A stretch of 64,000 nt of DNA, taken from an uncultured Clostridia bacterium. GTDB lineage: Bacteria > Bacillota > Clostridia > Christensenellales > CAG-138. Location of the stretch: positions 9,263 through 73,262 of the forward strand of contig CAMHJE010000002.1 in the NCBI GenBank assembly GCA_946185305.1. The letters run 5' to 3'. Of the stretch, positions 5,388-23,503 are shown piece by piece. Positions within the stretch are counted from its first letter, which is position 1, and each line of letters opens with the position of its first letter. Made by a program: the position numbers and the translations under genes. A model generated the notes under the pieces. It was given only the letters and a program-made list of their open reading frames with translations. It was not told where the DNA came from and made no database searches.

Positions 5388-7169
<1,782 letters not shown>

Positions 7170-7176
7170 TCATTCA

Positions 7177-7781: not shown

Positions 7782-7816
7782 GTGTTTGATCTCCTTTTTT
7801 GTCATATGCTGGGGTT

Positions 7817-8012
7817 TAAGGGAACTCCCTTACGTTACGAATTTGGCCGAATGACGGCAAAATTCAATGCTCGCTAATCCAACGCAGCCATGGCTGCATC
7901 GGCTTAGGCCGTTGTGCGGGACACCTTGTCCCGCGTGTCTTCTTTCTTCGCGTGATATGCTGTTTTCAAGGTGCTTGCAAAACAAAAAATGATGATTGTT
8001 AATTATCATCAT
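7817..8012. promoter_or_regulatory. cluster of inverted repeats upstream of MobC-like gene (candidate oriT/operator region)
   Basis: Four palindromes: taagggaactccctta (7817-7832), gcagccatggctgc (7884-7897), gggacaccttgtccc (7918-7932), and atgatgat-N8-atcatcat (7989-8012). Confidence 0.3.
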
Positions 8013-8048
8013 TCTCCACGCAGAATTATAAATGCCGGTTGACAGCTT

Positions 8049-8077
8049 GACAATAGTTTTGTATCATGTTGTTTGTG
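8049..8077 (+). promoter_or_regulatory. sigma-70-like promoter for DUF6076-like gene
   Basis: TTGACA (8049-8054), 17-nt spacer, TATCAT (8072-8077). A ggagaat-ctgt-attctcc inverted repeat (8101-8118) lies between the promoter and the RBS. Confidence 0.5.
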
Positions 8078-8134
8078 ATGATGTGAATACTCCAAATTCA
8101 GGAGAATCTGTATTCTCCAAAAGTGAGGGACAAG

Positions 8135-9691: not shown

Positions 9692-9843
9692 TCCTGCCGC
9701 CTCTAATCCGCCTTCAGCGCCATCTGATTGTTTTTCCATTGGATAGGCGCTGAAGTAGTAGAACGCTCTGTTGTGGATTAGCCAGCATTGGATTAAGTTT
9801 ACATAATCCGGTCGTAAAGGCGCACCCTTAAACCTCGGCGACA

Positions 9844-11436
9844 TTACAGGCTGAAATCAGCCGTGTTATCACGTTGATAGGAACACCAGTTGCCGTTTTC
9901 GATCAGTTCTTCGCGCGCGATCAATCGAAGCAGCGCATCGGATTCGCCGAAACGGTCAATGCGAGCGAGGACTGCGGCATAAAAGCGCTCCATTTTGACA
10001 TGATCGGATGTTGTGCGCGAAAGCGACAGGCGGCCGTGATAGTTTGAGATAAACAGCGTTGCCGCCGAAATGCTGCCGAGCAGCAGCTTGGACAGCGTGC
10101 GATAGAATTCGGCGTTTGCGATTTTCTGCGAAAACGGCAGCAATCCGCCCCAAATGAGCTCGAAGAGCAACACCGCAAGATACAGCAGAATACTGACCCA
10201 AAGAGCAACGCGGACGATGCGTTCGCTCCCCTTGTCTGCTCGCTTTGACCGACGGACAGACCGTTCGTGATACCTGCGCTGCGCGTCGACCCATGCATCA
10301 CGGATGCGATTTGACCGATCCGGCGGAATGCCGACGGACAGGGCCTTCAGCGCGGCAAAGGTCCATCCGGTTTCCGTCTTGCCAGTCCACGGCAAAACAT
10401 CGGCGGCGGAAATGCCGCTTCCGGCATAGCGCAAAAACGCCTGCACGCGCAGTCCCTCCGCCAGCATCCGATATTCGAGATAGCGCCGGTGCGAAGCAAA
10501 GCGGTTTCCGTACCGCTGCACAAGCCATGCAAGCAGAAGCATCCCGCCGCAAACGAGGATCATCCCGTGCAATTCGGCTTCGTCATACAGAAGAAACGCG
10601 ATCGTGATGACCGTGCTGATGATCGCAAGCGCGGCAAGAATGCGGCGGTACTGTTTAGAAAAGCGAACGCTCAAAGAATCCGCCTTTGCATACAGGGTTT
10701 CTATACGGTCGAGCTGCTTGTCCGGTTCCCGATCCGACGGCAGCAGCGCAAATTCGGATGCGGGCGCTATTTTCGCAAGCCGGTTGAACTCATCGGTTCG
10801 GGTCAGCGTTTCGTCAAAAGCGGTACGGTCGCCGAGAAAACGCACCGCTCCGGCGGCACTCGTTTCGTCGTCTTTACGCGGTGAAAGGATATGCAGCACG
10901 GGGCAGCAGCCGCCGAGCGGGATCGAATTCTGCGGTGCAAACGCGCCGTCCAAGGCGCAATGCACAATTGCCGCCGTGCCGCAGTCGGAAGCGAGCGACT
11001 CCGCTCCGTCCCACAGCGCGAGCAGCACATGGGCGTGCGAAGCAACATAGACGCCCGCCTGCCGATACGCAAAGTCCCGATCCTTCGACGCCGGTGCGCA
11101 TTCCGTGTCGGGCGCAACAAAACAGTCTTCCGCCGCGTCGCAAAGGGCCCGGAAGGCGGGAAGCGCTTCCCCGGAAAAGTCCTTTTCATATTCCGTCTGC
11201 GCCATCGGCAATACTGCGATCAGCGGGATCGAGAGCGACAGCGCGGCCTCGGCGCAAAGCTGATCTGCACCGTCCGCAAGGCTGTTTTGCATCACGATTT
11301 CGGAATGCGGACACCGGCTTTGCAGCGCCATGAGCTCCTGTTTGACTGCGTTGTATAAAACGTCGCGGTCCTCCGTGCGGATGTCCCGGTGTCCCGTTAC
11401 CCCGACGACGATCGGGATCGTATCGTGCAATGTCAT
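9844..11436 (-). CDS. SLOG-like Rossmann domain fused to two SLATT-type 2TM modules (predicted nucleotide-gated membrane effector)
   Basis: N-terminus IPIVVGVTGHRD ... SLADGADQLCAEAALSLSIPLIAVLP ... HVLLALWDG...GT resembles the YpsA/DUF2493/LOG (SLOG) clade. Two hairpin TM pairs follow: ILAALAIISTVITIAFLLY + GMILVCGGMLLLAWLV, and VRVALWVSILLYLAVLLF + LLLGSISAATLFISNY. Each pair is followed by an amphipathic helix (HRRYLEYRMLAEGLRVQ). ATG 11436 is preceded by AAAGGAGA. Confidence 0.6.
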   Translation of the reverse strand: MTLHDTIPIVVGVTGHRDIRTEDRDVLYNAVKQELMALQSRCPHSEIVMQNSLADGADQLCAEAALSLSIPLIAVLPMAQTEYEKDFSGEALPAFRALCDAAEDCFVAPDTECAPASKDRDFAYRQAGVYVASHAHVLLALWDGAESLASDCGTAAIVHCALDGAFAPQNSIPLGGCCPVLHILSPRKDDETSAAGAVRFLGDRTAFDETLTRTDEFNRLAKIAPASEFALLPSDREPDKQLDRIETLYAKADSLSVRFSKQYRRILAALAIISTVITIAFLLYDEAELHGMILVCGGMLLLAWLVQRYGNRFASHRRYLEYRMLAEGLRVQAFLRYAGSGISAADVLPWTGKTETGWTFAALKALSVGIPPDRSNRIRDAWVDAQRRYHERSVRRSKRADKGSERIVRVALWVSILLYLAVLLFELIWGGLLPFSQKIANAEFYRTLSKLLLGSISAATLFISNYHGRLSLSRTTSDHVKMERFYAAVLARIDRFGESDALLRLIAREELIENGNWCSYQRDNTADFSL

Positions 11437-11449
11437 TTCGTCTCCTTTG

Positions 11450-13480
11450 TCAATCAAGCCGATAGATGCGCAGTCCGTCGAACTTGCGGATCAGCTTCAG
11501 CATGGAGTTGAACGGCTTCCAGTCCTTGCCCTGATCCTTCTCGGACAGGTTGAGATAGTGCCGCGCGATCTCCAGCTCCCCAAAATCGCCGTTCATACAC
11601 AGCTTGTGCTGCCGCATCTGCTCCCGCAGCGCATAGCGGTTCGGCTCGTCGTCTGTCGTTACGGTCTCATACAGGCTTCCTGCCGTCCAGCCCATCGCGC
11701 GGTGCGCGCGCACCCAGCGGGCATGCTCCATCGGCGCGAACACGGCGGTCTGCTCGGGGGTGAATGCGCGCAGCATTTCAAAGTCCACGGGGCGATCCGT
11801 ATAGAAGCAGCCGATCGCGTTCAGATATTTCGAAAAGCTCTTGACCTGATTGATATTGCTGAGCTGATATTCGAGCGACATGGTATCAAAATCGCGTTCG
11901 AGCTGCTCTGCCGAGATCTCGTCCTCCCGGCCCTCATACCGATAGCGGCCGTTAATCGCCACCGCAAAATCATACATGTGCAAAAAGCTGCTGCCGGACA
12001 GGTACGTATGCTTGCTCTTGCGATCCGCCGTGCGTATGAACGTCGTGATGAACAGCGGATAGCCGCTTAGATCGACGATCTTTTCAATGTCCGTGCGGAA
12101 GCGCTGTTCGGTTTCCGCCATGTCGCTGTACGCTTTGAGGCGCGGCGGCGCATCCTGCCGGTCGCCCTGCTCCCATGCGCGGTAGCGCGCTTCATATTCT
12201 CCGATCTTTTCGGACTCCTCCGCGTCGAAGCAATAGAGCGCATGGATCATGCCTCTGCCGAAATCGAACTCGGCGTCCATCGGATGCAGTTCGGTGCGTG
12301 AATTCCGACCGTAAGCGGTGCGATCCCAACATTGCAGTTCGTCGCACAACATCAAAAGGTATGCAAGCGGATGCAGCTCAGCCTTCAAGGGTGCTTTATG
12401 CTTTTCCTTATCCTTATAAAACGCAATCGCAAACTTAAACAGGCTGTTGTGCAGCATGATCGCGGTCAATGCATCGACGTGCGCTTCGGTCAACGCCTCT
12501 TCGCCGAGCACCTCGCAAAGCTCCTGATACAGCCGCGTCGCGGAAAAGTATGCGTGATCCATGAAGTACCCGAACCGGTTCGGCTCGGTCGGCTTGCGGC
12601 GGATCGTGTCGCAAAGGTATTCCTCCGTCACCTCGTAAGCCGCGCCGAGGCGCTTGGCAATGCCGTAGGCAAGCAAATCTTCGACGGACTCGAACGGACG
12701 GGAAAACAGCTTTGCAAAGTGCGCCTTTTGCGCGTCGCTCATGCCGGACAGACAATCGAGGTCGCGGTAGGCAAGGTACAAGCTGCCCTTGCCGCGCTTC
12801 TTGCGATCCACCTCAAAGTAGGCCAACACCTGCTCGAACGGGATCTCAAACGGATAGCCGATATCGTGGAACAGCGAGGTCAGGCCCCAGTATTCGAGAA
12901 AGAATGCCGCCGCCCGGTGCTCGTCCGTTCCCGGCGCAAAGCCGTAGAAGCGTTGGAACGTCGTCCGGAACTGCTCGTTCGTTTCATAGATCGCAAGGCC
13001 GAGCGCAAACACGTAGACCGAATGCGAATAGTGGTCGCGGTGCTTCATCAAAAGGGAGCTTGCGTTGGACTCAAATTCCGACAAAAGCTCGATCATCTTG
13101 CTCGACCGCCCATAGGTGCCGAGGAACATCTTCAAAAAGCTGTAATAAACGGTGTAGGCGTCCTCGGCAACACCGGAATCGATGAAGGCTTCCAGCTCGC
13201 GCTCGAGGCAAAGCCGGTCGATGTCCATCTGCATATTGTACGGAATCTGATTCGGATAAAAGCTTGTGCCGAGATACTGCCCGGTTTGCTCCTCCTTCTT
13301 TGCGATCTCCGGCGAAAAGCGCAGCCCCTCGCACCGCTCGTGCAAAAACCGCAGCGCAGCGGACTTCAGATCGCTGCCCGTTCTGCCCGCGCCGAACATC
13401 GCCGGTTCAAACGGACCGACATCCACGTTATAGCGTTCTTTGTTGATCCTTCGCATCTGTTCTAAAGCCGTGTATGCCAT
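11450..13480 (-). CDS. HD-superfamily phosphohydrolase fused to tandem C-terminal RyR domains
   Basis: HD motifs: HYSHS (about aa 150), LFHDIGYP (about aa 205), MLHN (about aa 343), LCDELQCWDR (about aa 379). C-terminal repeats: FAVAINGRY...LEYQLSNINQVKSFSKYLNAIGC and MEHARWVRAHRAMGWTAG...HKL...YLNLSEKDQGKDWKPFNSMLKLI..GLRIYR, matching the RyR-domain pattern. GGAGGA RBS. Confidence 0.65.
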   Translation of the reverse strand: MAYTALEQMRRINKERYNVDVGPFEPAMFGAGRTGSDLKSAALRFLHERCEGLRFSPEIAKKEEQTGQYLGTSFYPNQIPYNMQMDIDRLCLERELEAFIDSGVAEDAYTVYYSFLKMFLGTYGRSSKMIELLSEFESNASSLLMKHRDHYSHSVYVFALGLAIYETNEQFRTTFQRFYGFAPGTDEHRAAAFFLEYWGLTSLFHDIGYPFEIPFEQVLAYFEVDRKKRGKGSLYLAYRDLDCLSGMSDAQKAHFAKLFSRPFESVEDLLAYGIAKRLGAAYEVTEEYLCDTIRRKPTEPNRFGYFMDHAYFSATRLYQELCEVLGEEALTEAHVDALTAIMLHNSLFKFAIAFYKDKEKHKAPLKAELHPLAYLLMLCDELQCWDRTAYGRNSRTELHPMDAEFDFGRGMIHALYCFDAEESEKIGEYEARYRAWEQGDRQDAPPRLKAYSDMAETEQRFRTDIEKIVDLSGYPLFITTFIRTADRKSKHTYLSGSSFLHMYDFAVAINGRYRYEGREDEISAEQLERDFDTMSLEYQLSNINQVKSFSKYLNAIGCFYTDRPVDFEMLRAFTPEQTAVFAPMEHARWVRAHRAMGWTAGSLYETVTTDDEPNRYALREQMRQHKLCMNGDFGELEIARHYLNLSEKDQGKDWKPFNSMLKLIRKFDGLRIYRLD

Positions 13481-13507
13481 GTTGCGTCCTCCGTTTTGTG
13501 TATTGGT

Positions 13508-14914
13508 TTACCGAATCTGCTGTCCATAAGGCGGGCAATAACCGCCGCCGTCCGTTTGCGAATAATAGACCCAGTATAGATGCCCTTCGTAGCCGACCTT
13601 CAAGGTGCTCCATTCCGCGTCGTCGATCGTTTCACCCTCTTCATATTCCGGTACAAAGCCGAAATGCGCCTGCAGCGCTTCAGGCAGAGCGCGGAACACA
13701 TCGACAAGCTTGCTCCCGATATGACCGTTTTCGGTGCGGATTTCATCCAGCACCGGCAAAACAAGCGCGTCGATCGCCGCAAGGTCGCCATTCTTTTGCA
13801 GCCGCTTCACCGCAATCTCCAACGCAAACACACGGTATGTCCAGTCCGGATGCAGCTTGACAATTTCGATCAGTTTTTCCGTCGGAAATGCCGAAAGGCG
13901 GCGCTCCCATTCATCCCTCGAACGACCGCGTCCCATTTTCAAAAGGTCGTTCATCAGCTCGTCGTTGATCGCGCTTTGCGGCAATCGCCGCACGATCTCC
14001 AGCTTGTCCTCGCTTCGATGCTCGTCAAGCATTCCGTACAGCCCTTTCAGATGCGCTGCATCCAGCAAGCCGAGCGCAAGGTTCCGACAAATCGTGCTTT
14101 GCGCCGCGAGGTGCCGCACCAATACATCCTGCTGCGTGTCCGTCAGCGGCGGCAAGCCTTGCCCCTTGCCGTCGTACAGCCAATACAGCGTGCTTGCGGC
14201 TTCCCGGGAAAGATCAGCGTCACGGCTTTGCTCCAAGAGTGCAATTAAGCGGGACGGCTCCGCCAATACTCGCGTGACCGCATATTCCGAACCCTTCAGT
14301 TCGCCGCAAAGGCTCATTCGCAGCACAGCATTTTGAAACGCTTCGCCGCAATGCTGATCCGGCTGCTGCGCCCGCTTCAGCACCGCTTGCGTAACGGCGT
14401 AATCGACGTTCGCGGTCAGCAGGCGCAAAAGCGCGTCTTCGCTGTTGATTTTGGCAACGGCGTCCCAAGCGGATTCGGTCACTTCCCGATCAAGCAGCAG
14501 TTTCAAAAGAGCCGCCTCGTCCGGCGCTGCGGCGATCGCCTTCGTTTCATGCTCCCGCAACAGCGCAACGGTCTTTGCTTCGACCGGGTAGAGACTTGCC
14601 GTTTCCCGGCTCCAATGCTTTGCCGAGGCCTTGACCGCAAGCAAGTACGCACGCTCCTTCGGCATTCGCTCGAACGCGGCCATGCGAACCTCTGTCCGGG
14701 CGTCCGATGTGACGATCTCTAAAAGCGCTTCGGGATCCTCGATCCCGTCGATCACGGACTGTGCGAGCGGCAGCAGTTCCTGCTGCCGACAGGCGATCGC
14801 GCATACCGCTTTTTCCGCGTCGATTTTCAGCAACTTACTGTACAGCCGCTTTCCCCAAACCGGCACGTGTTCGTTTTGGCAGAGTCGGGCGATCCTTTCA
14901 AACTGTTTTGTCAT
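13508..14914 (-). CDS. hypothetical helical-repeat (HEAT/PBS-lyase-like) protein
   Basis: 468 aa and mostly alpha-helical. Recurring ..D.EALL.L(L)......VR.AA motifs (EDPEALLEIVTSDARTEVRMAAFERM; DEAALLKLLLD; SEDALLRLL). Short Gly/Tyr-rich C-terminal tail. ATG 14914 is preceded by GGGAGG, 10 nt after the upstream stop. Confidence 0.4.
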   Translation of the reverse strand: MTKQFERIARLCQNEHVPVWGKRLYSKLLKIDAEKAVCAIACRQQELLPLAQSVIDGIEDPEALLEIVTSDARTEVRMAAFERMPKERAYLLAVKASAKHWSRETASLYPVEAKTVALLREHETKAIAAAPDEAALLKLLLDREVTESAWDAVAKINSEDALLRLLTANVDYAVTQAVLKRAQQPDQHCGEAFQNAVLRMSLCGELKGSEYAVTRVLAEPSRLIALLEQSRDADLSREAASTLYWLYDGKGQGLPPLTDTQQDVLVRHLAAQSTICRNLALGLLDAAHLKGLYGMLDEHRSEDKLEIVRRLPQSAINDELMNDLLKMGRGRSRDEWERRLSAFPTEKLIEIVKLHPDWTYRVFALEIAVKRLQKNGDLAAIDALVLPVLDEIRTENGHIGSKLVDVFRALPEALQAHFGFVPEYEEGETIDDAEWSTLKVGYEGHLYWVYYSQTDGGGYCPPYGQQIR

Positions 14915-14924
14915 GCCCGCCTCC

Positions 14925-17900
14925 CTATTCGATTTCCAGTTCAAATCCGTATTCGTCGCCCAGGGATCGAATCGCGGACTGCATATTGTTTGACACACAC
15001 GCCGCACGAAGATGCTGCAGCGTCAAAAGCGGCGAAATGTCGGTCAGTTCCGGCGTCCATGATACCTTGATGTATTCGAGTTCCGGGTGCTGCTCGATGA
15101 AGCTTCGGAATGTCTCGTTGGTGAAGCGACAGCCGCCCGCGTGAATCTCGTGGATTTTCACATCCTTCACGGCGTCCATCCAAAGCGCGCAGTCCGTGTT
15201 GAACACATTGAGACTTTGATACTCCGGCACGGCGGACAGCACCGCATACTGCTCACCCGGGATTTTCCCCTGCAAATTATCTACGCCGAGAACAAAATAT
15301 GGCACATTGCCGTCCTCGTCCGGCGTCATACAGAACGTATAGTCGATTTTGGCGATCGCGCTGATGTCCGTGAGGTCGTTGCCACCGATATTGAGATCGG
15401 TCAGATGCGGAAGCTTCTCAACGCCCTCGATCGAAGTGACCGTTTCCGTGTCCTCCACGCTGATGATCTCGAGCGTCTCCAGATCGAACAGCGGAGACAG
15501 ATCGGAAAGATTTGCCCATTTGGCTTGGAATCGGCGCAGCTTTGCAGCCGCCTCGATCCCGCCGAGCGATTCGATCGGCTGTCCGTATAGATACAGCGTT
15601 TCAAGATTCGGAAGTCGATTCAAAAATGCAAGATCGGCAATCGATCCTTCCCCGATCGGGAAGCGCTCGCCGGTTGCGTTGTCGTGAATATACAAGTCCG
15701 GTTTGTCGCCGCCGTCCCAGTCCTCTTCGAGCCACAGTTCGCCCCACGGATCTTTCGTTACATAGTTGCCGAAGAACCCGACCTCGCGGATGCGGGACAG
15801 CACGTTGTCCGGCAGGGCAAGGAACTCGTCTTTGGTCATCAACGGGATTTCGAAAGCAAAATCACAGTCCTCCGAAATCGCACCAAGTGGGGTGAGATCG
15901 TCGAGCTTGAGTCCGTTCAGATCTGCCCGTTGCAGCTTCTGGAGGTTTTGGATGCCTTGTATGCTTGTCACGCCGGTATATTGCAGCCGAAGCTCTTCCA
16001 GCTCCTGCAGAGTGAATGCCGGGGAAGCATCCGTCAGGGTCGGCGTGAACGAAAGTTCGAGATTCTTCAACTTCTGCAGATTCTGAATCCCCTCGATCGA
16101 CGTCAGCGACTGATCGATCAGGTTCAGATATTCGAGTCCGGTCAGCTTGGACAGCTTGGAAAAATCGGTCATTGTACCGGGGTGCTCGATTGCGATATCA
16201 TGGCTGGGGTCACCGTCGTTCGACCGCAGTACAAAGGTCGGTTTGTCGTCATCCCATTGCTGATCGAGCCAATATTCCTCCCAGGAGAAGATCGTGTCGC
16301 CGACTGCATGCAGATCCTTCACGCGGCTCAATACCGCGCTTGGCAGCGTGTCGAGCTCGTCGAACGACAAGAGCTTCACGTCAAACTCGGCGGGTTGCCA
16401 CCATTCGTCCGGATAGACGACCTCGTAATTGCGGAAATTACCACTGTCCACAAGCAGCTGCGCCTGCTCCTGAAGATGCGCCGGGACCTTCAGCACGTTG
16501 CCTTTTTTGATCCCGTACAGCGGGGAAAGGTCGGTCACGTCGTTGGTTTCGATCAGCTCGATCGAAACGCTCTTTTCGGGGTTCATGCCGTCGAAGCACT
16601 GCAGATCATGGAGATCGACCGGCGTGCAAAGCGAGATCCAATCCGCTTCGAACGTCAAGAAATCGGGCAGGGTAAAGGTGCTGTCCAGATAGATCTGGTT
16701 GAATTTCAATCCGTTCATCGCTGACCAGTCAGTCAAGCGCGGACAGCCGGTGATTTCCAGATACAGCGTGCCGTAGCGCGTAGCAAGCAGGTTCTGAATA
16801 CCGTCGAGCGAGGTTAAAAGCTGCGAATCGTCAATGATCAACCGATGCAGCGAAAGCTCCGGCATGCCCGAAAGCGACACGACGCCGTGCAGCAGCAGCT
16901 CCTGGGAGACATGCGGGAACAGCGACCAGTCGAGCGGTTCTCGGCTCCAATCGCTGTAGCCGCTGCGGCACCAAAGCTCAAATTCGTGGATTGTCGCATT
17001 CTTGATATAGGGCAAGGCGCTGCCGGTGCGGTCTGTGACGTTCAGATAGTTATAGTTTTTGATCGCTTCCAGTCCCGACCAGTCCTCCACCTCGGCAATG
17101 CCGAAGGAAAAGCCGTCCTTGTTGACGACATCCCAAAGGAAATTGACATCGTGCAGATCGGAGCCGTAGATGGCAAGATCGTTAAGGTGCGGCAGCTTCA
17201 CGATCGGAGAGATGTCCGCAAGATCGAAGACGCGATTCAGGTGAACCTGCTGAATTCCCGTGCAGCTTTCGAGCGCGGAGATGTCGGAAAGATGATCAAG
17301 CCCCTCGATATACACGCGCCGCAGACTTGTATGGTCTTCCAGGCCATGCAGGTTCCGGACGCTGTGCATACCCCAAAGGGCCAGTTCTTCGAGATTCTTT
17401 GCGTTTTCGAGCCAAGAAAGGTCGGACAGCGCATCGTTGTGCAGGTCAACGAATTTCAGACTTGTATTGTCCGAAAGCGCGGACATGTCAGATAGGTCTT
17501 CGCTTTGATAATCCACAAACAGGCGCGTCAGGCTTTGATGATCCTGCAGCCCGTTGATGCTTCGAAGCTCCGACAGGTTCACAAGCTCCAGTTCGCGGAG
17601 CTTCTTGGACGCGGAAAGACAGTCGAGATCGGTCAAAGGCAGACTGTCGAGCCGAACGAGCGAAAGCTCGGAACAGTTTTGCAGACCGGACAGGTCGATC
17701 ATCCGTGCCGTGCTGTCGGTGTCAAGGTAAAGCTCGGTCAAATTCGGCGGTCCGAAGGACGTCAGATCGGAGGGGATCGGATCGAACAGCGTCAGATTCG
17801 CATAGCGAAGCCGTTCGCAATCGGACAGCGGCGAAAAGTCCGTCAAAGAATTGCCGGAATAGCCGAAGCTGCGGATGCGCGTGTGTTTCAACCCGGCAAG

Positions 17901-18773
17901 GCTCGTGACGCCACAATCGAACAGCTCGACAACGTCAAGCTGTTCCAGTCCGGACAGCTCGGGAAGCTCGCCAATGACCCGCACCAGTGTGATGAACTTC
18001 ACATTCTTCATGTACCGCAAAAAGTCGAGATCGTTCCATTCCGCCGTCCCGATCTCGTGTCCATCCTCCTTGCTGTACCAATGCCTTTTGCCTTCCTCCT
18101 CGGTGCGGTTGACAAAGTACTCCGCGCCGATACGCGCCCAGCCGTTCTGCTTCGCAATCCCCTCATCACCGGTGAAGTAGTGCAGCGTATCGCCGACGAT
18201 GATCAGCTCATAGACCTTTTCGAGATCCTCGGCGGTAAGCCCCGCTTCGGAGGGAATGACCGGTTCCGCCGTCGGCGCGGGTGTGCTCTCCGGCAGCATC
18301 GTTTCCTTTGCGGGCAGCAGTTTTGTTGCAAGGAAGATACCTCCGGCGATCACGAGCGCGGCGGCAGCGGCCGCAAGGATGATCGGCAAAGGCTTTTTTG
18401 TTGCTTCAAACGGCTTTGCGGTTGCGATACGCTGTGCAAGCTCTTCTACGGAGTACCGTTCGGCGAAGATCGTGTTGCGGGAATACAGCGCGTTTTTCAG
18501 CAGCTCCGGCGGCGTTGAGCCGTCGAGGTTTATCGGCACCGTCTCCACGCCCTTCGCGTCATTGGCGAAGAACGTTTCCATAAGTGTGATGGCTTCGTTC
18601 AGTCGTTCGGACATGAACAGCAGCATGACGCCGCTTTTCTTCGGCATTTCGCTTTCGTCTGCGATCGGAAATCCCTTTGCCCGCAGCGCATCGAGGATCG
18701 GTGCGACGCGTTCTTTGTCGGCTTTGGCATAAAGGGGAAACAACTTCATTTTTCGGTACGTCATCTTTGCCAT
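14925..18773 (-). CDS. TIR-like domain / single TM / very large leucine-rich-repeat ectodomain protein (1282 aa)
   Basis: N-terminus KLFPLYAKADKERVAPILDALRAKGFPI...VMLLFMSERLNEA (divergent TIR-like fold, no signal peptide). TM PLPIILAAAAAALVIAGGIFLATKLL and a Pro/Thr linker. About 1,100 aa follow of internalin-like ~22-residue LRRs (L..L..L..L.L....L.D(I/L)S.L) in at least three modules. No LPXTG motif. Confidence 0.65.
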   Translation of the reverse strand: MAKMTYRKMKLFPLYAKADKERVAPILDALRAKGFPIADESEMPKKSGVMLLFMSERLNEAITLMETFFANDAKGVETVPINLDGSTPPELLKNALYSRNTIFAERYSVEELAQRIATAKPFEATKKPLPIILAAAAAALVIAGGIFLATKLLPAKETMLPESTPAPTAEPVIPSEAGLTAEDLEKVYELIIVGDTLHYFTGDEGIAKQNGWARIGAEYFVNRTEEEGKRHWYSKEDGHEIGTAEWNDLDFLRYMKNVKFITLVRVIGELPELSGLEQLDVVELFDCGVTSLAGLKHTRIRSFGYSGNSLTDFSPLSDCERLRYANLTLFDPIPSDLTSFGPPNLTELYLDTDSTARMIDLSGLQNCSELSLVRLDSLPLTDLDCLSASKKLRELELVNLSELRSINGLQDHQSLTRLFVDYQSEDLSDMSALSDNTSLKFVDLHNDALSDLSWLENAKNLEELALWGMHSVRNLHGLEDHTSLRRVYIEGLDHLSDISALESCTGIQQVHLNRVFDLADISPIVKLPHLNDLAIYGSDLHDVNFLWDVVNKDGFSFGIAEVEDWSGLEAIKNYNYLNVTDRTGSALPYIKNATIHEFELWCRSGYSDWSREPLDWSLFPHVSQELLLHGVVSLSGMPELSLHRLIIDDSQLLTSLDGIQNLLATRYGTLYLEITGCPRLTDWSAMNGLKFNQIYLDSTFTLPDFLTFEADWISLCTPVDLHDLQCFDGMNPEKSVSIELIETNDVTDLSPLYGIKKGNVLKVPAHLQEQAQLLVDSGNFRNYEVVYPDEWWQPAEFDVKLLSFDELDTLPSAVLSRVKDLHAVGDTIFSWEEYWLDQQWDDDKPTFVLRSNDGDPSHDIAIEHPGTMTDFSKLSKLTGLEYLNLIDQSLTSIEGIQNLQKLKNLELSFTPTLTDASPAFTLQELEELRLQYTGVTSIQGIQNLQKLQRADLNGLKLDDLTPLGAISEDCDFAFEIPLMTKDEFLALPDNVLSRIREVGFFGNYVTKDPWGELWLEEDWDGGDKPDLYIHDNATGERFPIGEGSIADLAFLNRLPNLETLYLYGQPIESLGGIEAAAKLRRFQAKWANLSDLSPLFDLETLEIISVEDTETVTSIEGVEKLPHLTDLNIGGNDLTDISAIAKIDYTFCMTPDEDGNVPYFVLGVDNLQGKIPGEQYAVLSAVPEYQSLNVFNTDCALWMDAVKDVKIHEIHAGGCRFTNETFRSFIEQHPELEYIKVSWTPELTDISPLLTLQHLRAACVSNNMQSAIRSLGDEYGFELEIE

Positions 18774-18809
18774 GGTGGGCCTCCTTGTCCTGTGCTAAGG
18801 GGAAATGGG

Positions 18810-19985
18810 TTACGGGACTAAAATGACATCGAACGCCGCATCGTCCGGGAAGATCAGCAGCAGCATATCGATACTCACAGTCACGGTCTCAAGCGATGGC
18901 TGTGCGTTCAGCACGGAAAGGTCGCGCACATTGCTGTGCTCCAGATGGAGGGTTTTAAGGCTCGGCAGAACCGGCAGCGTCGAAAGGTCCACGCGTTCGC
19001 ACCCCGCAAGGTTCAGTTCGTTCAGCAGCACAAGCCGATTGAGCGCGGCAAGCGACTGTACCGGCTGCATGAGAAGAGAAAGCGCCTTTAGATACGGCAT
19101 GCGCCCGATCACGGAAAGATCCTCGACAGGACCCGTCAGCGGCTTTGCGCCGTTTACGGCGTATGCGCCGTCTGTGAAAGCGACACCGGATAAATCGTTC
19201 AGCACCATCGTGCCGCAAAAATGCAGTTCCGTCACGCCGCCGAGATCGGACAGTGTTATATCGCCATCAGGAATACCCAGCGCGTTGCGCACCGCTGCTT
19301 CCTGCTTTGCATCGGGGAACGCGACCGTATCCATGCCGGGAACATACGGTGTCGCCGTCGGCTCCGGCGTTTCGGTCGGCACAGGCGTGGGGGTCGGCGT
19401 CAGTCGTGCCGTAGGTACGGGTGTCGGGTTTGGCAGGAGATAGGCGTCCAATCGACCGGTCATAAGCGCATACAGACCTGCCGCTGCAGCGGCAAACAGC
19501 AGCATCGCAAGCACAAGCATCAACCAATCAAACCGCAGTTTTTCAAACGGCTTGCGATAATATGCGCGCGTGATCTGTTTGCAGGAAAGAATGGTTTCGG
19601 CACGCGCAGATGCATCGGAACTGGACGAAAGCCTTGTGCATTGTGAAAGCAGATCGTTCCATTCTGCGTTCGGCGCCGTATCCGAAAGCGGCAGCAGCAG
19701 AACCGGCTTCTTCAGAACAAGCGCTGCTTCGATCTCGCTTCGGCAGTTGGGTGAAGCAAAAGCTGTTTCGGAAACAAAGAACAACACCATAGAGCAGCTT
19801 TGCATATGCTCTTCGATGTTCTTCGGCCAATCGCTGCCCGCCGGAATGCCCTCGTCGTACCACAGTCGCAGTTTGCGGTTGTGCAGCAGTGTAATGGCTT
19901 TCAGAACCGCTTCGGAATCGCGGTGCGAATAACTGATGAAAAGATAGGGACGGCGACCCTCATATGGCTTAAAGTAGACGCTCAT
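18810..19985 (-). CDS. TIR domain / single TM / PT-linker / LRR ectodomain protein (391 aa)
   Basis: Canonical bacterial TIR_2-type motifs: RPYLFISYSHRDSEAV, RLWYDEGIPAGSDW, MVLFFVSETAFASPNCRSEIEAAL (candidate catalytic Glu at aa 84). TM WLMLVLAMLLFAAAAAGLYALM, then PNPTPVPTARLTPTPTPVPTETPEPTATP, then FPDAKQEAAVRNALGIPDGDITLSDL followed by LRRs. The ATG overlaps the upstream stop (ATGA). Confidence 0.8.
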   Translation of the reverse strand: MSVYFKPYEGRRPYLFISYSHRDSEAVLKAITLLHNRKLRLWYDEGIPAGSDWPKNIEEHMQSCSMVLFFVSETAFASPNCRSEIEAALVLKKPVLLLPLSDTAPNAEWNDLLSQCTRLSSSSDASARAETILSCKQITRAYYRKPFEKLRFDWLMLVLAMLLFAAAAAGLYALMTGRLDAYLLPNPTPVPTARLTPTPTPVPTETPEPTATPYVPGMDTVAFPDAKQEAAVRNALGIPDGDITLSDLGGVTELHFCGTMVLNDLSGVAFTDGAYAVNGAKPLTGPVEDLSVIGRMPYLKALSLLMQPVQSLAALNRLVLLNELNLAGCERVDLSTLPVLPSLKTLHLEHSNVRDLSVLNAQPSLETVTVSIDMLLLIFPDDAAFDVILVP

Positions 19986-20791
19986 GATCCGCCTCCCGTC
20001 AGCACGATATCATACCGTTCGAGAAGCGGAGCGGCATCGACCGCGTTCGTCTGATTCAGTTCAATTCGGGAAAGATTGGAAAGCAGGGCAAACTCATCCG
20101 TGCGTTCGGGTAAAGTGTCAAAACGAAGTGTCGTAACCGTTACAATCGACTCTTCGGTGATCGGTTCGCCGCTGAGCGCGTCGCGTACCGCTGCAGTCAG
20201 AACGGGATCGGAAAAGAAAACAGTATCACCATTTTTTTCGATCGATGGCGCGCGAAGACGTCGTACAAGAACCGCTGCGCCGATCAGCAGAAACGCCGCG
20301 GCGACAATTGCGGCTGCGATCGCAAGAACAGCCTTTTTGCGAACGGGCAGCGGAGGGCCGATCAACTCATGCGAAAATCCGTCTGCATGGAGCAATGCTG
20401 CTTCCGCCGCATCGACGCTGCACAGCTTGATATGCACTGCGCGCGAATCCAACCCCATGGACAGCGTGCTTTCCGCATTATCTACGTCGACGCTGATGAT
20501 CGGGATGCTTTTCTCCTGACAAACGAGTACTGCGCTCTTTACCGCCTGATCCGTACGCGCACGTTTGGTTTGATACAGAACCACAAGCCGTGCCTTGCGC
20601 ATACGCGCATCGCGCCGTTCGCGCTCTGCTACGGTGCCGCTGTGCCCCGTGGGGTACCAGATGCGGCAGCCGCGTTCGTACAGCCGTCGAAACAGCGGCC
20701 GCAGCCGATCTTTATCCGCATCTGAAAAGCAAAAATACAGATACGGCTGATCGCCGCCGTACGGCGGAAAAAGCTCCGAAAACCTCGCCAT
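19982..20791 (-). CDS. TIR-like domain / single TM / short LRR-type ectodomain protein (269 aa)
   Basis: QPYLYFCFSDADKDRLRPLFRRLYERGCRIWY parallels the PYLFISYSHRD...WYD motifs of the neighbouring TIR. TM AVLAIAAAIVAAAFLLIGAAVLV. C-terminal DPVLTAAVRDALSGEPITEESI... LRR-cap-like segment. ATG 20791 is preceded by GGGGAGGA. Confidence 0.6.
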   Translation of the reverse strand: MARFSELFPPYGGDQPYLYFCFSDADKDRLRPLFRRLYERGCRIWYPTGHSGTVAERERRDARMRKARLVVLYQTKRARTDQAVKSAVLVCQEKSIPIISVDVDNAESTLSMGLDSRAVHIKLCSVDAAEAALLHADGFSHELIGPPLPVRKKAVLAIAAAIVAAAFLLIGAAVLVRRLRAPSIEKNGDTVFFSDPVLTAAVRDALSGEPITEESIVTVTTLRFDTLPERTDEFALLSNLSRIELNQTNAVDAAPLLERYDIVLTGGGS

Positions 20792-20825: not shown

Positions 20826-20869
20826 ATACTACCAAAATATATCGTATACGCAAATGCTGTTTCTGTCAA
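20826..20869 (-). promoter_or_regulatory. candidate promoter of the TIR-LRR/SLOG operon
   Basis: On the minus strand: TTGACA (20864-20869), 17-nt spacer, TACGAT (20841-20846). A second TGgTAGTAT extended -10 lies at 20826-20834. Confidence 0.4.
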
Positions 20870-20991: not shown

Positions 20992-21018
20992 AAAGAAAAA
21001 GGCGCATTGCTGCGCCTT
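20992..21018 (-). terminator. orphan Rho-independent terminator (minus strand) in intergenic region
   Basis: Perfect 8-bp stem aaggcgca / tgcgcctt with a ttgc loop. On the minus strand it is followed by TTTTTCTTTG. No annotated minus-strand gene lies upstream of it. Confidence 0.5.
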
Positions 21019-21164
21019 CGAGCATCTTGTCTGATATTCAAAAAACATGCGGAGAAAACACTCTGCTTTCTCCACATATCCTTAGCCCTTACTGCAAAGC
21101 CCGATATGGATTATTTGCTTCCTTATCGGTGTCCCGCAATACCGGGCTTTTTTCGCATTGAGAA

Positions 21165-21284: not shown

Positions 21285-22160
21285 ATGAAAAAAAGAAATC
21301 CTCTGATCCGCGTCGCCGTCCTTTTGGTGATCGGCGTGCTTGTGTACATCTTAGGCCGCAGTCTCGGCTGGATCGACCCGGTTCCCAAGCTCCAATGGAA
21401 CGGGGAACGGATCGTCAACGGGCTTTTGCTGCTGCTCGGCCTGCTGATTCTGGAGGGCATCGTGAGCTTTATTCTCGACAAGCTCAACCCGAAGGGCAAC
21501 CGCACCAAAACGCTGATCGCGCTCGGCCGGAACATCATGCACTACGCGGTCGTGCTGCTGACGATCTGCATCCTTTTGACGATGCTGAACGTGGATATCG
21601 TGACGATTCTTTCCGGCCTCGGGATCATCGCGCTGATCATCGGCTTCGGCGCGGAAAGCCTGATCGCGGACGTGGTGACCGGCATGTTCATTCTGATGGA
21701 CAACCAGTATAATATCGGGGACATCATCGAGATCAACGGCTTCCGCGGCACCGTCACGGACGTGAGCGTCCGCACGACCGTGCTGACCGACGTGGGCGGC
21801 AACGTGAAGATCATCAACAATTCCGACATGAAGAATATTCTGAACCGGTCGGACAATACCTCCCGCTCGGTCGCGGAATTCGGTATCCCGTATGAAACGG
21901 ATCTCGAAGCCCTCGAGGAGAAGATCCCGGCGCTGCTGCAGAGCATCTATGACGCGCACCGCGATCTGATGAAGGATGTGCCGGTGTACGTCGGCGTCGA
22001 TCAGCTCGGCGACAGCGCTGTAGTGCTGAAGTTCGTCGTCGAGGTTGCCGAAAAGGATATCTACGCGGGCGCCCGCGTGCTGAACCACGACCTGTTTATC
22101 GGCATGCGCAAGCTCGGCGTCGAGGTGCCGTTCCCGCAGGTTGACGTGCATCAAAAATGA
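21285..22160 (+). CDS. mscS: small-conductance mechanosensitive channel (MscS family)
   Basis: Three N-terminal TM helices, then IIGFGAESLIADVVTGMFILMDNQYNIGDIIEINGFRGTVTDVSVRTTVL, the MscS beta-domain signature. AAAGGAGA RBS. Confidence 0.85.
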   Translation: MKKRNPLIRVAVLLVIGVLVYILGRSLGWIDPVPKLQWNGERIVNGLLLLLGLLILEGIVSFILDKLNPKGNRTKTLIALGRNIMHYAVVLLTICILLTMLNVDIVTILSGLGIIALIIGFGAESLIADVVTGMFILMDNQYNIGDIIEINGFRGTVTDVSVRTTVLTDVGGNVKIINNSDMKNILNRSDNTSRSVAEFGIPYETDLEALEEKIPALLQSIYDAHRDLMKDVPVYVGVDQLGDSAVVLKFVVEVAEKDIYAGARVLNHDLFIGMRKLGVEVPFPQVDVHQK

Positions 22161-23503
22161 AGCGCGTACACGACCTGCTGGGGCTCCCGCCCGAATACCA
22201 CGAGGACGGGCCGCCCGAATATACGACGCCGCCCGACGAGTATAACCGCTTCGCGCCGACCGAGCCGCCCGCCAAGGCGGGCAAGTCCCGGATGGTGAAG
22301 ATGCTGCTGCTCGCTGTGGCGGGGTTGTCGCTGCTCGGCGTGGCGCTGCCGGGTTTTTCGCTTGTGCCCCCGGCCGAACCGGAGCCGACGCCCGCCGCTG
22401 TTTCCCCCACCCCCGCGCCCGCCGTGGCGGTCGTGCCGGAGGAACGGTATACGGTACAGGCGTGGCACGAGCCGCCGTCCGGCGCAAGGGTCACGCTCAC
22501 ATGGGAAGGCGTCGGTGAAAGCGCCGACGGCGCCACGGGGCTTTCGGTGCCGGAGGGCGCGCGCGTGCGGCTGTCCTATGTCCCCGCGGTACCGTACACG
22601 ATGGAGGATGTATCGCTCGGCGGCGTGATGCTCGACGGCGCGATCACCCAAACCGACGACCCGCTGCTGTTCACGGTCGGCAAGGGCGGCGGCGTGATCC
22701 ATTTCTACCTGAACTACCCGTCCGATGGAGCGCCAACACCCACGCCCGAGCCGACGCCGGAGCCAACGCCTGCGCCGACGCCGGAGCCGACGCCCGGCGT
22801 GACGATCACCTATTACCGCCGCTCCGCGGTCTACGAAGCCTTTGCCTACTGGACGATGCCGGAGCAGATGGAATCGGTGACGGTTCGGCTGACCGATCCC
22901 TATATGGGCACGATCTTCGAGCATGAACTGACCGCCGAGGAGGTCGCATTCGGCTATTATGAGCTGAACCATTTTGACCTGTATAACTATCTGTTTACGA
23001 ACGGCTTTTCCTTCGACAATCTGCCGTCCGACTACGATCCGAACCCGCTGCTGGAGGTGACCTACGCATACGGTGAAAACGGGCCGGCCGGTACGGAAAC
23101 CGCCGAAGCCGCATATGAAATGTGGGTCAATCTCTCCTACGACGACCCGGACGATGATATGTCGTGGATATGGGGCAGCTACTATCCCGACTGCTTCGTG
23201 GTGCGCATAGAAGACCGGCTGAACTATGATGGGCTGAAGATCTATTACGGTGAGCAGGATGAGCTGTCGCCCGGCGACGTATGGGTAAAGGTCACGGTGG
23301 ACGGACAGGATATTCCGGCGGAGACGTGCCGGTTGGTGCTCGAACCGTATGAGGAAGCGAACGGCGAGGTGTACTATGCCTACACGTTCGTCATGCCGCG
23401 CCCCGACACCTTCCCCGAACACGGCACCGCGCACTTTGTGATCACGCAAAAGCTTGTGCATTACGATACGACGGTAACGCGCGAGCGGGATTATACGTAC
23501 TAA
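22157..23503 (+). CDS. hypothetical single-pass membrane protein with Pro-rich N-terminus and PT-rich linkers
   Basis: ATGA overlap with the mscS stop. TM MVKMLLLAVAGLSLLGVALPGF. PTPTPEPTPEPTPAPTPEPTP linker. No recognisable catalytic motif. Confidence 0.5.
   Translation: MKRVHDLLGLPPEYHEDGPPEYTTPPDEYNRFAPTEPPAKAGKSRMVKMLLLAVAGLSLLGVALPGFSLVPPAEPEPTPAAVSPTPAPAVAVVPEERYTVQAWHEPPSGARVTLTWEGVGESADGATGLSVPEGARVRLSYVPAVPYTMEDVSLGGVMLDGAITQTDDPLLFTVGKGGGVIHFYLNYPSDGAPTPTPEPTPEPTPAPTPEPTPGVTITYYRRSAVYEAFAYWTMPEQMESVTVRLTDPYMGTIFEHELTAEEVAFGYYELNHFDLYNYLFTNGFSFDNLPSDYDPNPLLEVTYAYGENGPAGTETAEAAYEMWVNLSYDDPDDDMSWIWGSYYPDCFVVRIEDRLNYDGLKIYYGEQDELSPGDVWVKVTVDGQDIPAETCRLVLEPYEEANGEVYYAYTFVMPRPDTFPEHGTAHFVITQKLVHYDTTVTRERDYTY

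Follow-up and report, generated by a model that had tools for sequence, protein, structure and literature searches.

A putative Thoeris-like operon of rumen Clostridia predicted to couple membrane-spanning TIR-LRR proteins to RyR-domain and SLOG-SLATT partners

Thoeris, with types I–XI, is the closest known system to the operon described here. Its type III combines several TIR proteins with a SLOG effector, and its type VII has the SLATT effector ThsH. Thoeris ThsA senses cADPR isomers through its SLOG domain, and the SLATT proteins, membrane effectors associated with TIR and CBASS systems, have so far been described as cell-killing (bioRxiv 10.64898/2025.12.03.692087; PMC9503650). Binding and cleavage of TIR signals by RyR domains were shown only recently, in phage proteins. 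The RyR-domain enzyme RyDEP binds and cleaves the TIR-made 2'cADPR and 3'cADPR; its His75 and Asp117 are catalytic and its Trp78 stacks on the adenine (PMC13232231; 2026 preprint). In the literature searched, characterised bacterial TIR immunity senses intracellular events. An earlier sequence-only reading of this DNA had likewise taken characterised bacterial TIR defence proteins to be cytoplasmic sensors. Bacterial TIR-TM-LRR proteins were not described in this literature, and one paper states that TM and LRR features are apparently absent from bacterial TIR systems. A prior mention is possible in the 2015 SLOG/SLATT paper of Burroughs et al.

The window analysed, 64,000 nucleotides from an uncultured Clostridia bacterium (contig CAMHJE010000002.1), encoded a compact system of five or six genes (Table 1), for which the predictions are sharp and testable. 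Genes A, B and C were abutting minus-strand ORFs with ATG starts, each behind a good Shine-Dalgarno sequence, and the stop codon of gene A overlapped the ATG of gene B (ATGA). These features ruled out a wrong start codon for the three genes, an artefact that the sequence-only reading had named as a risk. That reading had ended at gene C; the downstream genes E (RyR/HD-like) and F (SLOG-SLATT) carry the mechanistic argument. LRR receptor-kinase-like genes adjoined the cassette.

Table 1. Coordinates of the genes, predicted domains and signals of the operon, numbered from the first nucleotide of the window.
Feature	Position (nt)	Strand	Residues (aa)	Description
Gene A	19982..20791	-	269 in total	Predicted non-catalytic TIR-like domain, TM helix, short ectodomain
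Gene A, TIR-like domain	20357-20752	-	~14-145	Profile homology to gene B TIR
Gene A, TM helix		-	158-176	
Gene A, ectodomain	19985-20239	-	185-269	
Gene B	18810..19985	-	391 in total	TIR, TM, Pro/Thr linker, LRR
Gene B, TIR	19581-19946	-	14-135	Pfam TIR_2; Glu84 codon 19734-19736
Gene B, TM helix	19458-19529	-	about 153-176	Hydrophobic segment 157-175
Gene B, Pro/Thr linker		-	185-218	
Gene B, internalin-type LRR domain	18813-19328	-	220-391	AF2 model, Foldseek
Gene C	14925..18773	-	1282 in total	Truncated TIR-like domain, TM, linker, LRR ectodomain
Gene C, truncated TIR-like domain	18414-18752	-	8-120	Without BB-loop segment and catalytic Glu
Gene C, TM helix		-	131-149	Followed by Pro/Thr/Glu-rich linker
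Gene C, ectodomain	14928-18308	-	~1130 in total	Several LRR blocks
Gene D	13508..14914	-	468 in total	Without family match
Gene E	11450..13480	-	676 in total	HD-like and RyR domain
Gene E, N-terminal domain	12281-13063	-	~140-400	All-helical, with HD-like motif set
Gene E, C-terminal RyR domain	11453-11818	-	~555-676	His586, Trp589, Asp653
Gene F	9844..11436	-	530 in total	SLOG-like and DUF4231/SLATT-type membrane domain
Gene F, SLOG-like domain	10837-11436	-	1-200	N-terminal
Gene F, TM helices		-	about 266-284, 289-307, 410-428	Numbering from ATG at 11436
Promoter-like site	20841..20869	-		TTGACA-17-TACGAT, ~50 nt upstream of gene A; 10/12 consensus matches, pattern match only
Terminator-like hairpin	20998-21019			Strong; closes transcript upstream of gene A

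Protein B matched Pfam TIR_2 (PF13676) above the gathering cut-off of 28 bits (63.1 bits, E = 4.6e-17). A scored below it (18.5 bits, E = 0.003); the whole of C gave no hit, and its N-terminus alone reached 14.3 bits (E = 0.057). In profile–profile comparisons of the families (hhalign), the TIR of B was matched by A with 99.7% probability (E = 4.5e-26) and by C with 96.9% (E = 1.6e-10). The AF2 model of B (mean pLDDT 84) showed alternating strand and helix elements at aa 15–135. Foldseek with the whole model was uninformative on the TIR fold, its top 50 matches all being to LRRs. Glu84 of B (S-E-I, in the alpha-C region) was kept in 81 of 86 family sequences and was invariant in a 28-sequence alignment. 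The aligned position was Ala87 in A, variable in the family (A/R/S/N), and Thr67 in C (A/R/K/T in the family). C also had a 13-residue gap opposite the DEGIPAGSDWPKN stretch of B, in the BB-loop region; the corresponding stretch WYDEGIPAGSDW (aa 42–53) was conserved in B. By these alignments, the intact TIR catalytic signature with its catalytic-type Glu is assigned to B and to neither A nor C. A TIR(-like) N-terminal domain had been described for all three proteins: that of B is the only bona fide TIR, whereas A and C are read as divergent TIR-like domains homologous to it.

Each of the three proteins contained exactly one strong hydrophobic segment (Kyte-Doolittle 2.3–2.9). None lay near the N-terminus, which means that signal peptides are absent, as the sequence-only reading had stated. 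The rest of its description was largely recovered: three genes with a TIR(-like) domain, one TM helix and C-terminal LRRs, those of A by reading only; basic residues before the helices (VRKK, YYRKPFEKLR and TKK); a Pro/Thr-rich linker after the helix in two of the three (strong in B, moderate in C); and post-TM regions given as about 100, 220 and 1,130 aa, which measured 93, 216 and 1133 aa. The topology proposed then, N-in/C-out with the TIR inside and the LRRs outside, is also our best reading. The 15 residues before and after the helix contained on average 2.8 and 1.7, 3.4 and 1.1, and 3.9 and 1.9 K/R in the three families; in gene A itself, the flanking charges were non-discriminating (3 K/R before, 4 after). 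The large N-terminal domains without signal peptide that precede the helix, and the Pro/Thr linkers on its other side, support the same orientation. So do neighbouring genes that encode a Ser/Thr kinase domain, a TM helix and then the same type of LRR ectodomain, because the kinase has to be cytoplasmic.

In animal Toll-like receptors, a single TM helix joins an LRR ectodomain to a cytoplasmic TIR. The predicted layout here is the same with the domain order reversed, as had been pointed out, and all three elements were present in the sequence. Probable hetero-oligomerisation, with non-catalytic TIRs as scaffolds, would be a further likeness. Unlike Toll-like receptors, the proteins have a predicted type II topology with an N-terminal TIR and no signal peptide, and a type I orientation was not found. 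Their LRRs are of the internalin type, and the TIR that signals is predicted to act as an enzyme, producing a small molecule instead of recruiting adaptors. The system is TLR-like in layout but not a member of the TLR family, and the TIR-TM-LRR architecture almost certainly arose here by independent domain fusion and not by common descent as a whole. It would be a clear example of convergence on a TLR-like design. Bacterial nucleotide-signal immunity would gain a means of sensing at the surface from a TIR receptor that spans the membrane and carries a large, variable ectodomain.

Among E family members, 11 of 39 matched the RyR domain PF02026 (best E = 6.1e-16), and the family profile matched RyR domains in the PDB (E = 1.9e-13). 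His586, Trp589 and Asp653 were invariant in all 46 sequences, at the spacing of RyDEP His75, Trp78 and Asp117; this mapping was counted through a RyR-like chain of B. thetaiotaomicron, not aligned to RyDEP. The counterpart of RyDEP His100, aa 636, was variable (E/L/S/D). From this conservation we predict that the domain binds an ADPR-type TIR signal. E thus shares its RyR (R12, PF02026) domain and the invariant His/Trp/Asp with RyDEP. Unlike that small phage anti-defence protein, it is host-encoded, lies in a TIR operon and is fused to an HD-like domain of about 500 aa. The motifs of the latter (H150, H153, H205-D206, D308-H309, H344 and D380) were likewise invariant in 46 of 46 sequences. In Foldseek searches of the PDB, the AF2 model of E (pLDDT 82, pTM 0.88) had no significant match; the non-significant ones included the PPX C-terminal domain, PDE2A/PDE10 and an HD-GYP protein. 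The N-terminal domain had no Pfam, phmmer or PDB sequence match either, and for this reason it is called HD-like on its motifs.

In the F family, DUF4231 was detected in 21 of 31 members (best E = 9.2e-7) and a YspA-type SLOG model in 13 of 31 (best E = 6.8e-6). The F protein of the window itself scored under both cut-offs (20.7 bits against 24.7 for DUF4231; 17.6–19.3 bits against 28.2 for SLOG), and NCBIfam SLATT_3 matched the DUF4231 stretch weakly (E = 0.014). DUF4231 is a member of the SLATT clan. We read the motifs GVTGHR, SLAEGAD and GCGTAE as similar to the glycine-rich loops known from the DprA/YpsA group. The sole PDB match of the F profile, KtrA, was judged spurious, and a large homologue search returned close family members only and no independent context. 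A TTG lay seven codons upstream of the ATG of gene F.

A survey for the TIR-TM-LRR architecture, as the sequence-only reading had suggested, found it in 149 species-level genomes. The A-B-C triad kept a fixed order in 80 or more species-level genomes; all of them were Clostridia, and most came from the ruminant gut. In the 80 best species-level loci, A abutted B in 79, and C followed within 150 nt in 74 of 76. This recurrence and fixed adjacency argue that the architecture is not due to chance. Linkage at the family level extended to E and F: in 29 A-B-C loci with sufficient flank, both were present in 21, E only in 2 and neither in 6, and no other neighbour recurred in more than 6 of 84 loci. 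Viewed from E, 46 of 80 metagenome loci contained a TIR ORF within 6 kb; among the 20 that had 3 kb or more of flank on both sides, the figure was 14. With or without F, E also adjoined TIR-TM-coiled-coil-beta-propeller proteins (L085, L092 and others), a TIR-TM-Pro/Thr-linker-LRR_5 protein (L090) and soluble TIR proteins. Some of these loci (L092, L113 and L116) had TIR and E but lacked F within 10 kb, an argument for E acting as an effector and not just as a terminator of the signal. A host-encoded RyR-domain protein as a regular TIR partner in rumen Clostridia gives the phage RyR finding a cellular context. The spread of the system, wide and fairly uniform in one ecological group, was unlike the patchy spread of typical defence systems.

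In Thoeris, a TIR gene shares its operon with an effector whose domain binds the signal; here, E (RyR) and F (putative SLOG) stand in that position. As in Thoeris, a TIR gene with a catalytic-type Glu stands beside proteins with domains known or predicted to bind ADPR derivatives (SLOG, SLATT), several TIR-type genes share one operon, and sensor genes swap as effector genes stay constant. Unlike in Thoeris, the TIR proteins are predicted to pass the membrane once and to carry large extracytoplasmic LRRs, two of the three TIR-type domains are predicted to be non-catalytic, the putative SLOG and SLATT domains belong to a single protein, and the constant partner is a RyR and HD-like protein for which we found no description as a Thoeris effector. 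PADLOC gave weak ThsB-type hits for B (E from 2.5e-5 to 6e-3) and for no other protein; NCBIfam ThcB4 reached 17.8 bits against a cut-off of 220, and no curated Thoeris or defence model matched.

We lean towards a Thoeris-like operon for TIR nucleotide signalling that has a membrane-spanning sensor, with defence against phage or competitors at the cell surface as its most probable purpose. A, B and C belong to separate families that are always found together and in the same order, and so they look like subunits. In the scheme that we infer for the topology, complex formation, chemistry, ligand and outcome, A, B and C would form a hetero-oligomeric single-pass receptor with the LRRs in the zone of the Gram-positive wall and the TIR-type domains inside. 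The large, variable ectodomain of C would bind the cue, and B would be the sole catalytically equipped TIR, with A and C as non-catalytic scaffolds. When the receptor is engaged or clustered on the outside, its TIR domains in the cytoplasm would be rearranged, and B would turn NAD+ into an ADP-ribose-derived signal, e.g. a cADPR isomer. The RyR domain of E would read this signal and control or feed the HD-like hydrolase domain, and may also cleave it. The SLOG domain of F would read it as well and open the SLATT-type membrane pore, leading to growth arrest or death. Against this reading count the ambiguous flanking charges of A, the six of 29 loci without E or F, the sub-threshold scores of F in the window, the HD-like fold of E without a significant match, the failure of curated defence models to match, the mostly housekeeping flanks, the lack of relatives in IMG/VR, the fairly even spread within one ecological group and the purifying selection on the ectodomains. 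A bolder form can be put forward tentatively: A-B-C might be a prokaryotic pattern-recognition receptor that senses virions, bacteriocins or competitors before DNA entry and passes a cADPR-type messenger to a RyR effector and a SLOG-gated pore. If true, outside-in TIR signalling and a TIR-cADPR-RyR axis would be bacterial inventions that foreshadow the TLR layout and the debated link between cADPR and ryanodine receptors in animals.

The same chain could serve a purpose other than immunity, which we consider unlikely. It would then be a reversible second-messenger pathway reporting a surface cue (plant fibre, host glycan, wall status or cell–cell contact), in which B makes the messenger, the RyR/HD-like protein E destroys it and F adjusts physiology as a ligand-gated channel instead of killing the cell. 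The flanks of the system were mostly housekeeping genes, no defence-island context was seen in the flanks examined, and no relatives of B were found in IMG/VR viral contigs. Such flanks fit a pathway of this kind, as do its wide and fairly even occurrence across 149 species that share one habitat and purifying selection on all parts; the RyDEP-type catalytic dyad kept in E would suit signal turnover, and the adjoining receptor-kinase-like genes suggest ordinary surface signalling. However, the TIR and E pairs without F and the soluble TIR partners resemble sensor–effector defence pairs, SLATT is known so far from cell-killing effectors, and the swapping of C ectodomains and the variation in copy number are better explained by an arms race than by a fixed ligand.

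The variation of the ectodomains also bears on whether they sense at all. The sequence-only reading had taken the three proteins for paralogues forming a recognition repertoire. Across A, B and C, which are distinct families, this was not supported; within family C the idea survived. There, sizes ranged from 661 to 1788 aa, with one to three tandem copies per locus, and tandem copies shared a mean identity of 75% in the N-terminal 150 aa versus 43% in the ectodomain. The C ectodomain was a mosaic between the two closest strains (window and L005), and the 90%-identity cluster of C had 4 members versus 47 for A. Repertoire-like variation, we conclude from these comparisons, resides in family C, with a constant signalling part and a variable recognition part. 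The proposed variability of the ectodomains did not extend to the families at large: ectodomains were about as conserved as cytoplasmic domains, and family-wide hypervariability was rejected, identities being similar inside and outside. Positive selection on A, B and C was also rejected (dN/dS < 0.4), with values of 0.1–0.4 throughout, ectodomains included, that indicate purifying selection. We regard it as quite improbable that the ectodomains sense nothing and hold the TIR proteins in position within the envelope, e.g. where the wall grows or phage enters, with the TIRs responding to a cytoplasmic cue. The B ectodomain was conserved to the same degree as the B TIR, characterised ThsB proteins all sense intracellular events, and E has soluble TIR partners too, all of which would suit an anchor. 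An LRR region of more than 1100 aa would nevertheless be a costly one, the variability of C in length, copy number and close-strain sequence is typical of a ligand-binding surface, and the three unrelated ectodomain types (internalin-type LRR, LRR_5 and beta-propeller) are classic binding modules.

The LRRs had been called internalin-like, and the AF2 model bore this out for B, the ectodomain modelled: residues 220–391 had a pLDDT above 90, and the best Foldseek matches were internalins H, F and B (E ~ 3e-6). C matched Pfam LRR_4 (E = 1.1e-21) and internalin-type models, which were its best NCBIfam matches. No LRR model matched the tail of A (about 90 aa), which we ourselves read as an LRR N-cap motif and about two repeats. 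The LRR fold and the N-cap are shared with Listeria internalins; unlike these, the proteins lacked both a signal peptide and an LPXTG or GW anchor, and their scores were far under the family cut-offs (101 bits versus 1600). Internalin-type LRRs are typical of adhesins, and A, B and C might be surface adhesins or wall-associated LRR proteins with an odd N-terminal membrane anchor, their TIR-like domains aiding oligomerisation and E and F being unrelated neighbours. The missing catalytic residues of A and C and the six loci without E and F would agree with this. We hold it to be very unlikely, given the high conservation of the B TIR including its Glu, the linkage of E/F in 21–23 of 29 loci where other neighbours were not conserved, and the re-pairing of E and F with other TIR proteins. 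That the starts are wrong or the segment does not span the membrane, leaving the LRRs cytoplasmic as in plant NLRs, is extremely improbable despite the charges around the helix of A: the starts are fixed as described above, a hydrophobic stretch of at least 19 residues was kept in about 250 A/B/C family members (mean KD 2.3–2.6), the AF2 model of B showed a single long helix followed by a disordered Pro/Thr linker, and the kinase-TM-LRR relatives have the same layout.

Gene D was a lineage-specific insertion between C and E. It was missing from L005, L007, L008, L001 and all 84 related loci compared, and it had no match in Pfam, PADLOC or NCBIfam. Only near-identical copies were found, and its 90%-identity cluster had 18 members.

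The sequence-only reading had described A, B and C as proteins without signal peptides, in which a TIR(-like) domain, one transmembrane (TM) helix and LRRs follow one another, and this layout was confirmed by TIR homology, a single helix and LRR matches. One strong hydrophobic segment was found in each protein (residues 158–176 in A, 157–175 in B and 131–149 in C), and none had a hydrophobic N-terminus. The regions beyond the helix were 93, 216 and 1133 aa long, in agreement with the approximately 100, 220 and 1,130 aa first estimated. B contained a clear TIR domain (Pfam TIR_2, 4.6e-17), A fell below the Pfam threshold and C was essentially missed by Pfam. In profile-to-profile comparisons using alignments of 80–89 family members, the N-terminal domains of A (99.7% probability, E = 4.5e-26) and C (96.9% probability, E = 1.6e-10) were homologous to the TIR of B. 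The structure prediction that had been proposed for the ectodomains gave, for B, an AlphaFold2 model in four parts (mean pLDDT 84) with a confident LRR domain, the closest structural matches of which were Listeria internalins. C showed strong matches to LRR and internalin-type models. No LRR model matched the short tail of A, which we read as a putative LRR N-cap with approximately two repeats.

The B family had more than 365 members, all approximately 390 aa long. A survey of the TIR-TM-LRR architecture, also proposed earlier, found relatives in 149 species when one genome per species was scanned; all were Clostridia (by label Oscillospiraceae, Ruminococcaceae, Lachnospiraceae, Christensenellales and others), and ruminant guts were the source of most. 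A adjoined B in 79 of the 80 best loci, and C started no more than 150 nt past the B stop codon in 74 of 76, with F lying between B and C in the other two. The TIR of B retained the WYDEGIPAGSDW stretch, and its Glu84 was present in 81 of 86 family sequences. The aligned position was Ala87 in A and Thr67 in C, variable in both families, and C lacked 13 residues at the BB-loop region of B. Since the catalytic-type glutamate was conserved in B only, we infer that the TIR of B is of the enzyme type and that the TIR-like domains of A and C are of the scaffold type. With the gene order fixed and Glu84 confined to B, the suggested repertoire of three paralogues gave way to a reading with a single enzyme, two scaffolds and variability in C, so that by these comparisons A, B and C are putative subunits and not a repertoire.

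The three genes first described were real, but the minus-strand operon reaches on to E and F and comprises six genes, A to F. The C-terminal part of E is a RyR domain. PF02026 was matched by 11 of 39 members of the E family (best E = 6.1e-16), and the profile of the family reached solved RyR domains at 1.9e-13. RyDEP, a phage RyR-domain enzyme, both binds 2'cADPR and 3'cADPR, which TIR proteins produce, and cleaves them; for this it uses His75, Trp78, His100 and Asp117, which are conserved across PF02026 (2026 preprint, PMC13232231). All 46 E-family sequences, those of a subfamily with just 25% identity among them, kept His586, Trp589 and Asp653; the counterpart of RyDEP His100 was a variable position. 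The His/Trp/Asp spacing of E in an aligned B. thetaiotaomicron RyR-like sequence equalled that of RyDEP His75, Trp78 and Asp117, by our own count and not by an alignment with RyDEP. The first approximately 500 aa of E were all-helical (AlphaFold2 pLDDT 82, pTM 0.88), and the invariant motifs RDH..H, HD, DH, HN and DE resemble HD-superfamily metal sites; sequence and structure searches did not confirm an HD-like fold. F carries a predicted SLOG-like domain at its N-terminus and a predicted membrane domain of the DUF4231/SLATT type (13 and 21 of 31 family members matched the SLOG and DUF4231 models, and the window copy lay just below both cut-offs). SLOG and SLATT were reportedly defined in a 2015 comparative-genomics paper. 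SLOG is the cADPR-isomer sensor of ThsA in the anti-phage Thoeris systems, and SLATT proteins are membrane effectors that occur in association with TIR proteins (bioRxiv 10.64898/2025.12.03.692087; PMC9503650).

What was observed is which domains the proteins carry, which residues are conserved and how the genes are linked at the family level. On this basis we hypothesized that A, B and C form an assembly in the membrane and that engagement of the variable C ectodomain would reorganise the cytoplasmic TIR-type domains. B would convert NAD+ to an ADPR-derived signal, E (through RyR) and F (through SLOG) would read it, and growth arrest or death would protect the population. We lean towards this chain as a whole. 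The same chemistry might instead serve non-immune, reversible surface signalling, which we regard as unlikely. Several observations do not favour a part in immunity: no curated defence model matched, no viral relatives of B were found in IMG/VR, the flanks hold housekeeping genes, and within a single habitat the system is spread widely and uniformly.

The proposed check of LRR variability and dN/dS came out divided: the ectodomains were not hypervariable, but C varied in copy number and as a mosaic. Across the families, ectodomains were approximately as conserved as cytoplasmic domains (mean pairwise identity 0.43 vs 0.46 in A, 0.49 vs 0.53 in B and 0.34–0.40 vs 0.40 in C). Against three close relatives, dN/dS was 0.1–0.4 in all parts, with no sign of positive selection by point mutation. 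C occurred in 1–3 copies per locus, with ectodomains of 661–1788 aa; in their first 150 aa, tandem copies of one locus averaged 75% identity with maxima of 99–100%, against 43% in the ectodomain. Between the window and its closest relative L005, dS in A, B and C was 0.03–0.15 over the cytoplasmic and TM segments. In the C ectodomain dS rose to 0.46–0.84, amino-acid identity was 66–77% and some stretches had no nucleotide match; when window 16562–17905 was compared with L005 12080–13405, nucleotide similarity went from 94% to 82% or no match and then back up to 87%. The dS jump and the unmatched stretches made the C ectodomain look like a recombination mosaic limited to the extracellular part. 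The 90%-identity clusters (4 members for C, 47 for A) were consistent with a variable C. Beside this mosaic, it seems improbable that the ectodomains only localise a cytoplasmic sensor.

Among 29 loci with enough flank, 21 had E and F, two had E only and six had neither; no other neighbour recurred in more than six of 84 loci. Slightly less probable still is that A, B and C are adhesins with unrelated neighbours. When loci were gathered from E, E (with or without F) also adjoined other TIR proteins. Of 80 rumen-type metagenome loci, 46 had a TIR ORF at most 6 kb from E; among the 20 loci in which each flank reached 3 kb or more, 14 did. F accompanied E at L085 and L090, two loci with other TIR-TM partners; at L090 the partner was adjoined by a 571-aa secreted neighbour with a signal peptide. 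Soluble TIR proteins of 420–940 aa adjoined E in L110, L132, L152 and L157. Exchanged sensors with constant partners follow the logic of Thoeris-like systems. In L092, L113 and L116, TIR and E occurred without F within 10 kb; such a two-gene system points to E as an effector, possibly degrading its own activator as well. The proposed TIR signal and SLOG/SLATT-type readers resemble those of Thoeris, but the A-B-C-E-F system is in no curated Thoeris type, and the terms LRR and RyR occur in neither the text nor the supplements of a 2025 survey that proposes 29 types (bioRxiv 10.64898/2025.12.03.692087). According to a 2024 study on TIR systems of E. coli, bacterial TIR systems seem to lack TM and LRR features. 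In the papers searched we found no description of a bacterial TIR protein with an extracytoplasmic LRR domain, although an earlier passing mention is possible. The system is a real and conserved variant of TIR signalling, apparently undescribed, in which the LRR sensor would span the membrane.

Sequence features favour the N-in/C-out orientation. In A, B and C the helix comes after a folded domain of 130–160 aa that has no signal peptide, and in B and C a Pro/Thr linker lies beyond it. Across the families, the 15-residue stretches on the near and far sides of the helix held 2.8/1.7 (A), 3.4/1.1 (B) and 3.9/1.9 (C) K/R, with net charge positive ahead of the helix and slightly negative past it; the window A is charge-ambiguous (three K/R before, four after). 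Several related loci encode a Ser/Thr kinase domain, RKKRKR, a TM helix and an ectodomain resembling those of B and C by BLAST. A Ser/Thr kinase needs cytoplasmic ATP, so these relatives also argue for N-in/C-out. An artefact or inverted topology is hardly credible beside these features. The predicted layout resembles that of TLRs, but the domain order is reversed and A, B and C do not have the TLR orientation. The kinase protein of locus L087 has an LRR ectodomain related to those of B and C and is encoded beside the TIR cassette; it is a predicted bacterial 'LRR receptor kinase'. Similar ORFs of approximately 570 aa lie upstream of E in L034, L037, L066, L067, L072, L121, L122, L126, L137, L153 and L154.

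Features of the operon, its surroundings and related loci (positions in the window unless a locus or model is named)
Feature	Position	Strand	Length	Remarks
A	19982–20791	-	269 aa	
B	18810–19985	-	391 aa	
B model	15–135			strand-helix alternating domain
B model	152–176			one long helix
B model	189–216			disordered Pro/Thr linker
B model	220–391			confident LRR domain
C	14925–18773	-	1282 aa	
D	13508–14914	-	468 aa	no family match
E	11450–13480	-	676 aa	
F	9844–11436	-	530 aa	
Large serine recombinase	5388–7115			in low-GC patch
DUF6076 protein	8123–9688			in low-GC patch
Surface protein candidate	22157–23503	+	448 aa	no Pfam match
AAA_21/AAA_15-type ATPase	24584–25330	-	248 aa	AbiEii-like kind
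LRR receptor kinase-like ORF	L087:8150–9862			kinase aa 1–250, RKKRKR, TM 265–283, LRR ectodomain
TIR-RRRRR-TM-coiled-coil-beta-propeller	L085:7209–9989, L092:6266–8971		~900 aa	E partner
TIR-TM-Pro/Thr-linker-LRR_5	L090:5544–6986		480 aa	E partner

GGAGG-type ribosome-binding sites precede the ATG of A, B and C, and the A stop overlaps the B start. A promoter-like site lies approximately 50 nt upstream of A, with a terminator-like hairpin just ahead of it. The window belongs to a contig of 88.6 kb from an uncultured Clostridia genome. Among species-level genomes, the nearest relative of the window genome was a goat-reticulum Clostridia MAG. D is inserted exactly between C and E (13493–14919), resembles a helical-repeat protein by eye and could be an accessory or regulatory component; it was found in neither the closest relatives (L005, L007, L008 and L001) nor any of 84 related loci, and had 18 near-identical copies in public assemblies. 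Cassette similarity to L005 stopped abruptly at 9825 and 21135, so the surroundings differ between close relatives. Directly downstream of F lies a low-GC patch (5388–9700; 48% vs approximately 59%), and in the related locus L008 a recombinase (77% identity to that of the window) and a DUF6076 fragment likewise lie downstream of F. By eye, a hydrophobic helix (MVKMLLLAVAGLSLLGVALPGF), linkers rich in Pro and Thr (TPTPEPTPEPTPAPTPEPTP) and a short tail at the N-terminus can be made out in the 448-aa protein, which may be another membrane-anchored surface protein built as A, B and C are. The ATPase, 3.8 kb from the operon, is the sole other nearby gene with a possible defence flavour.
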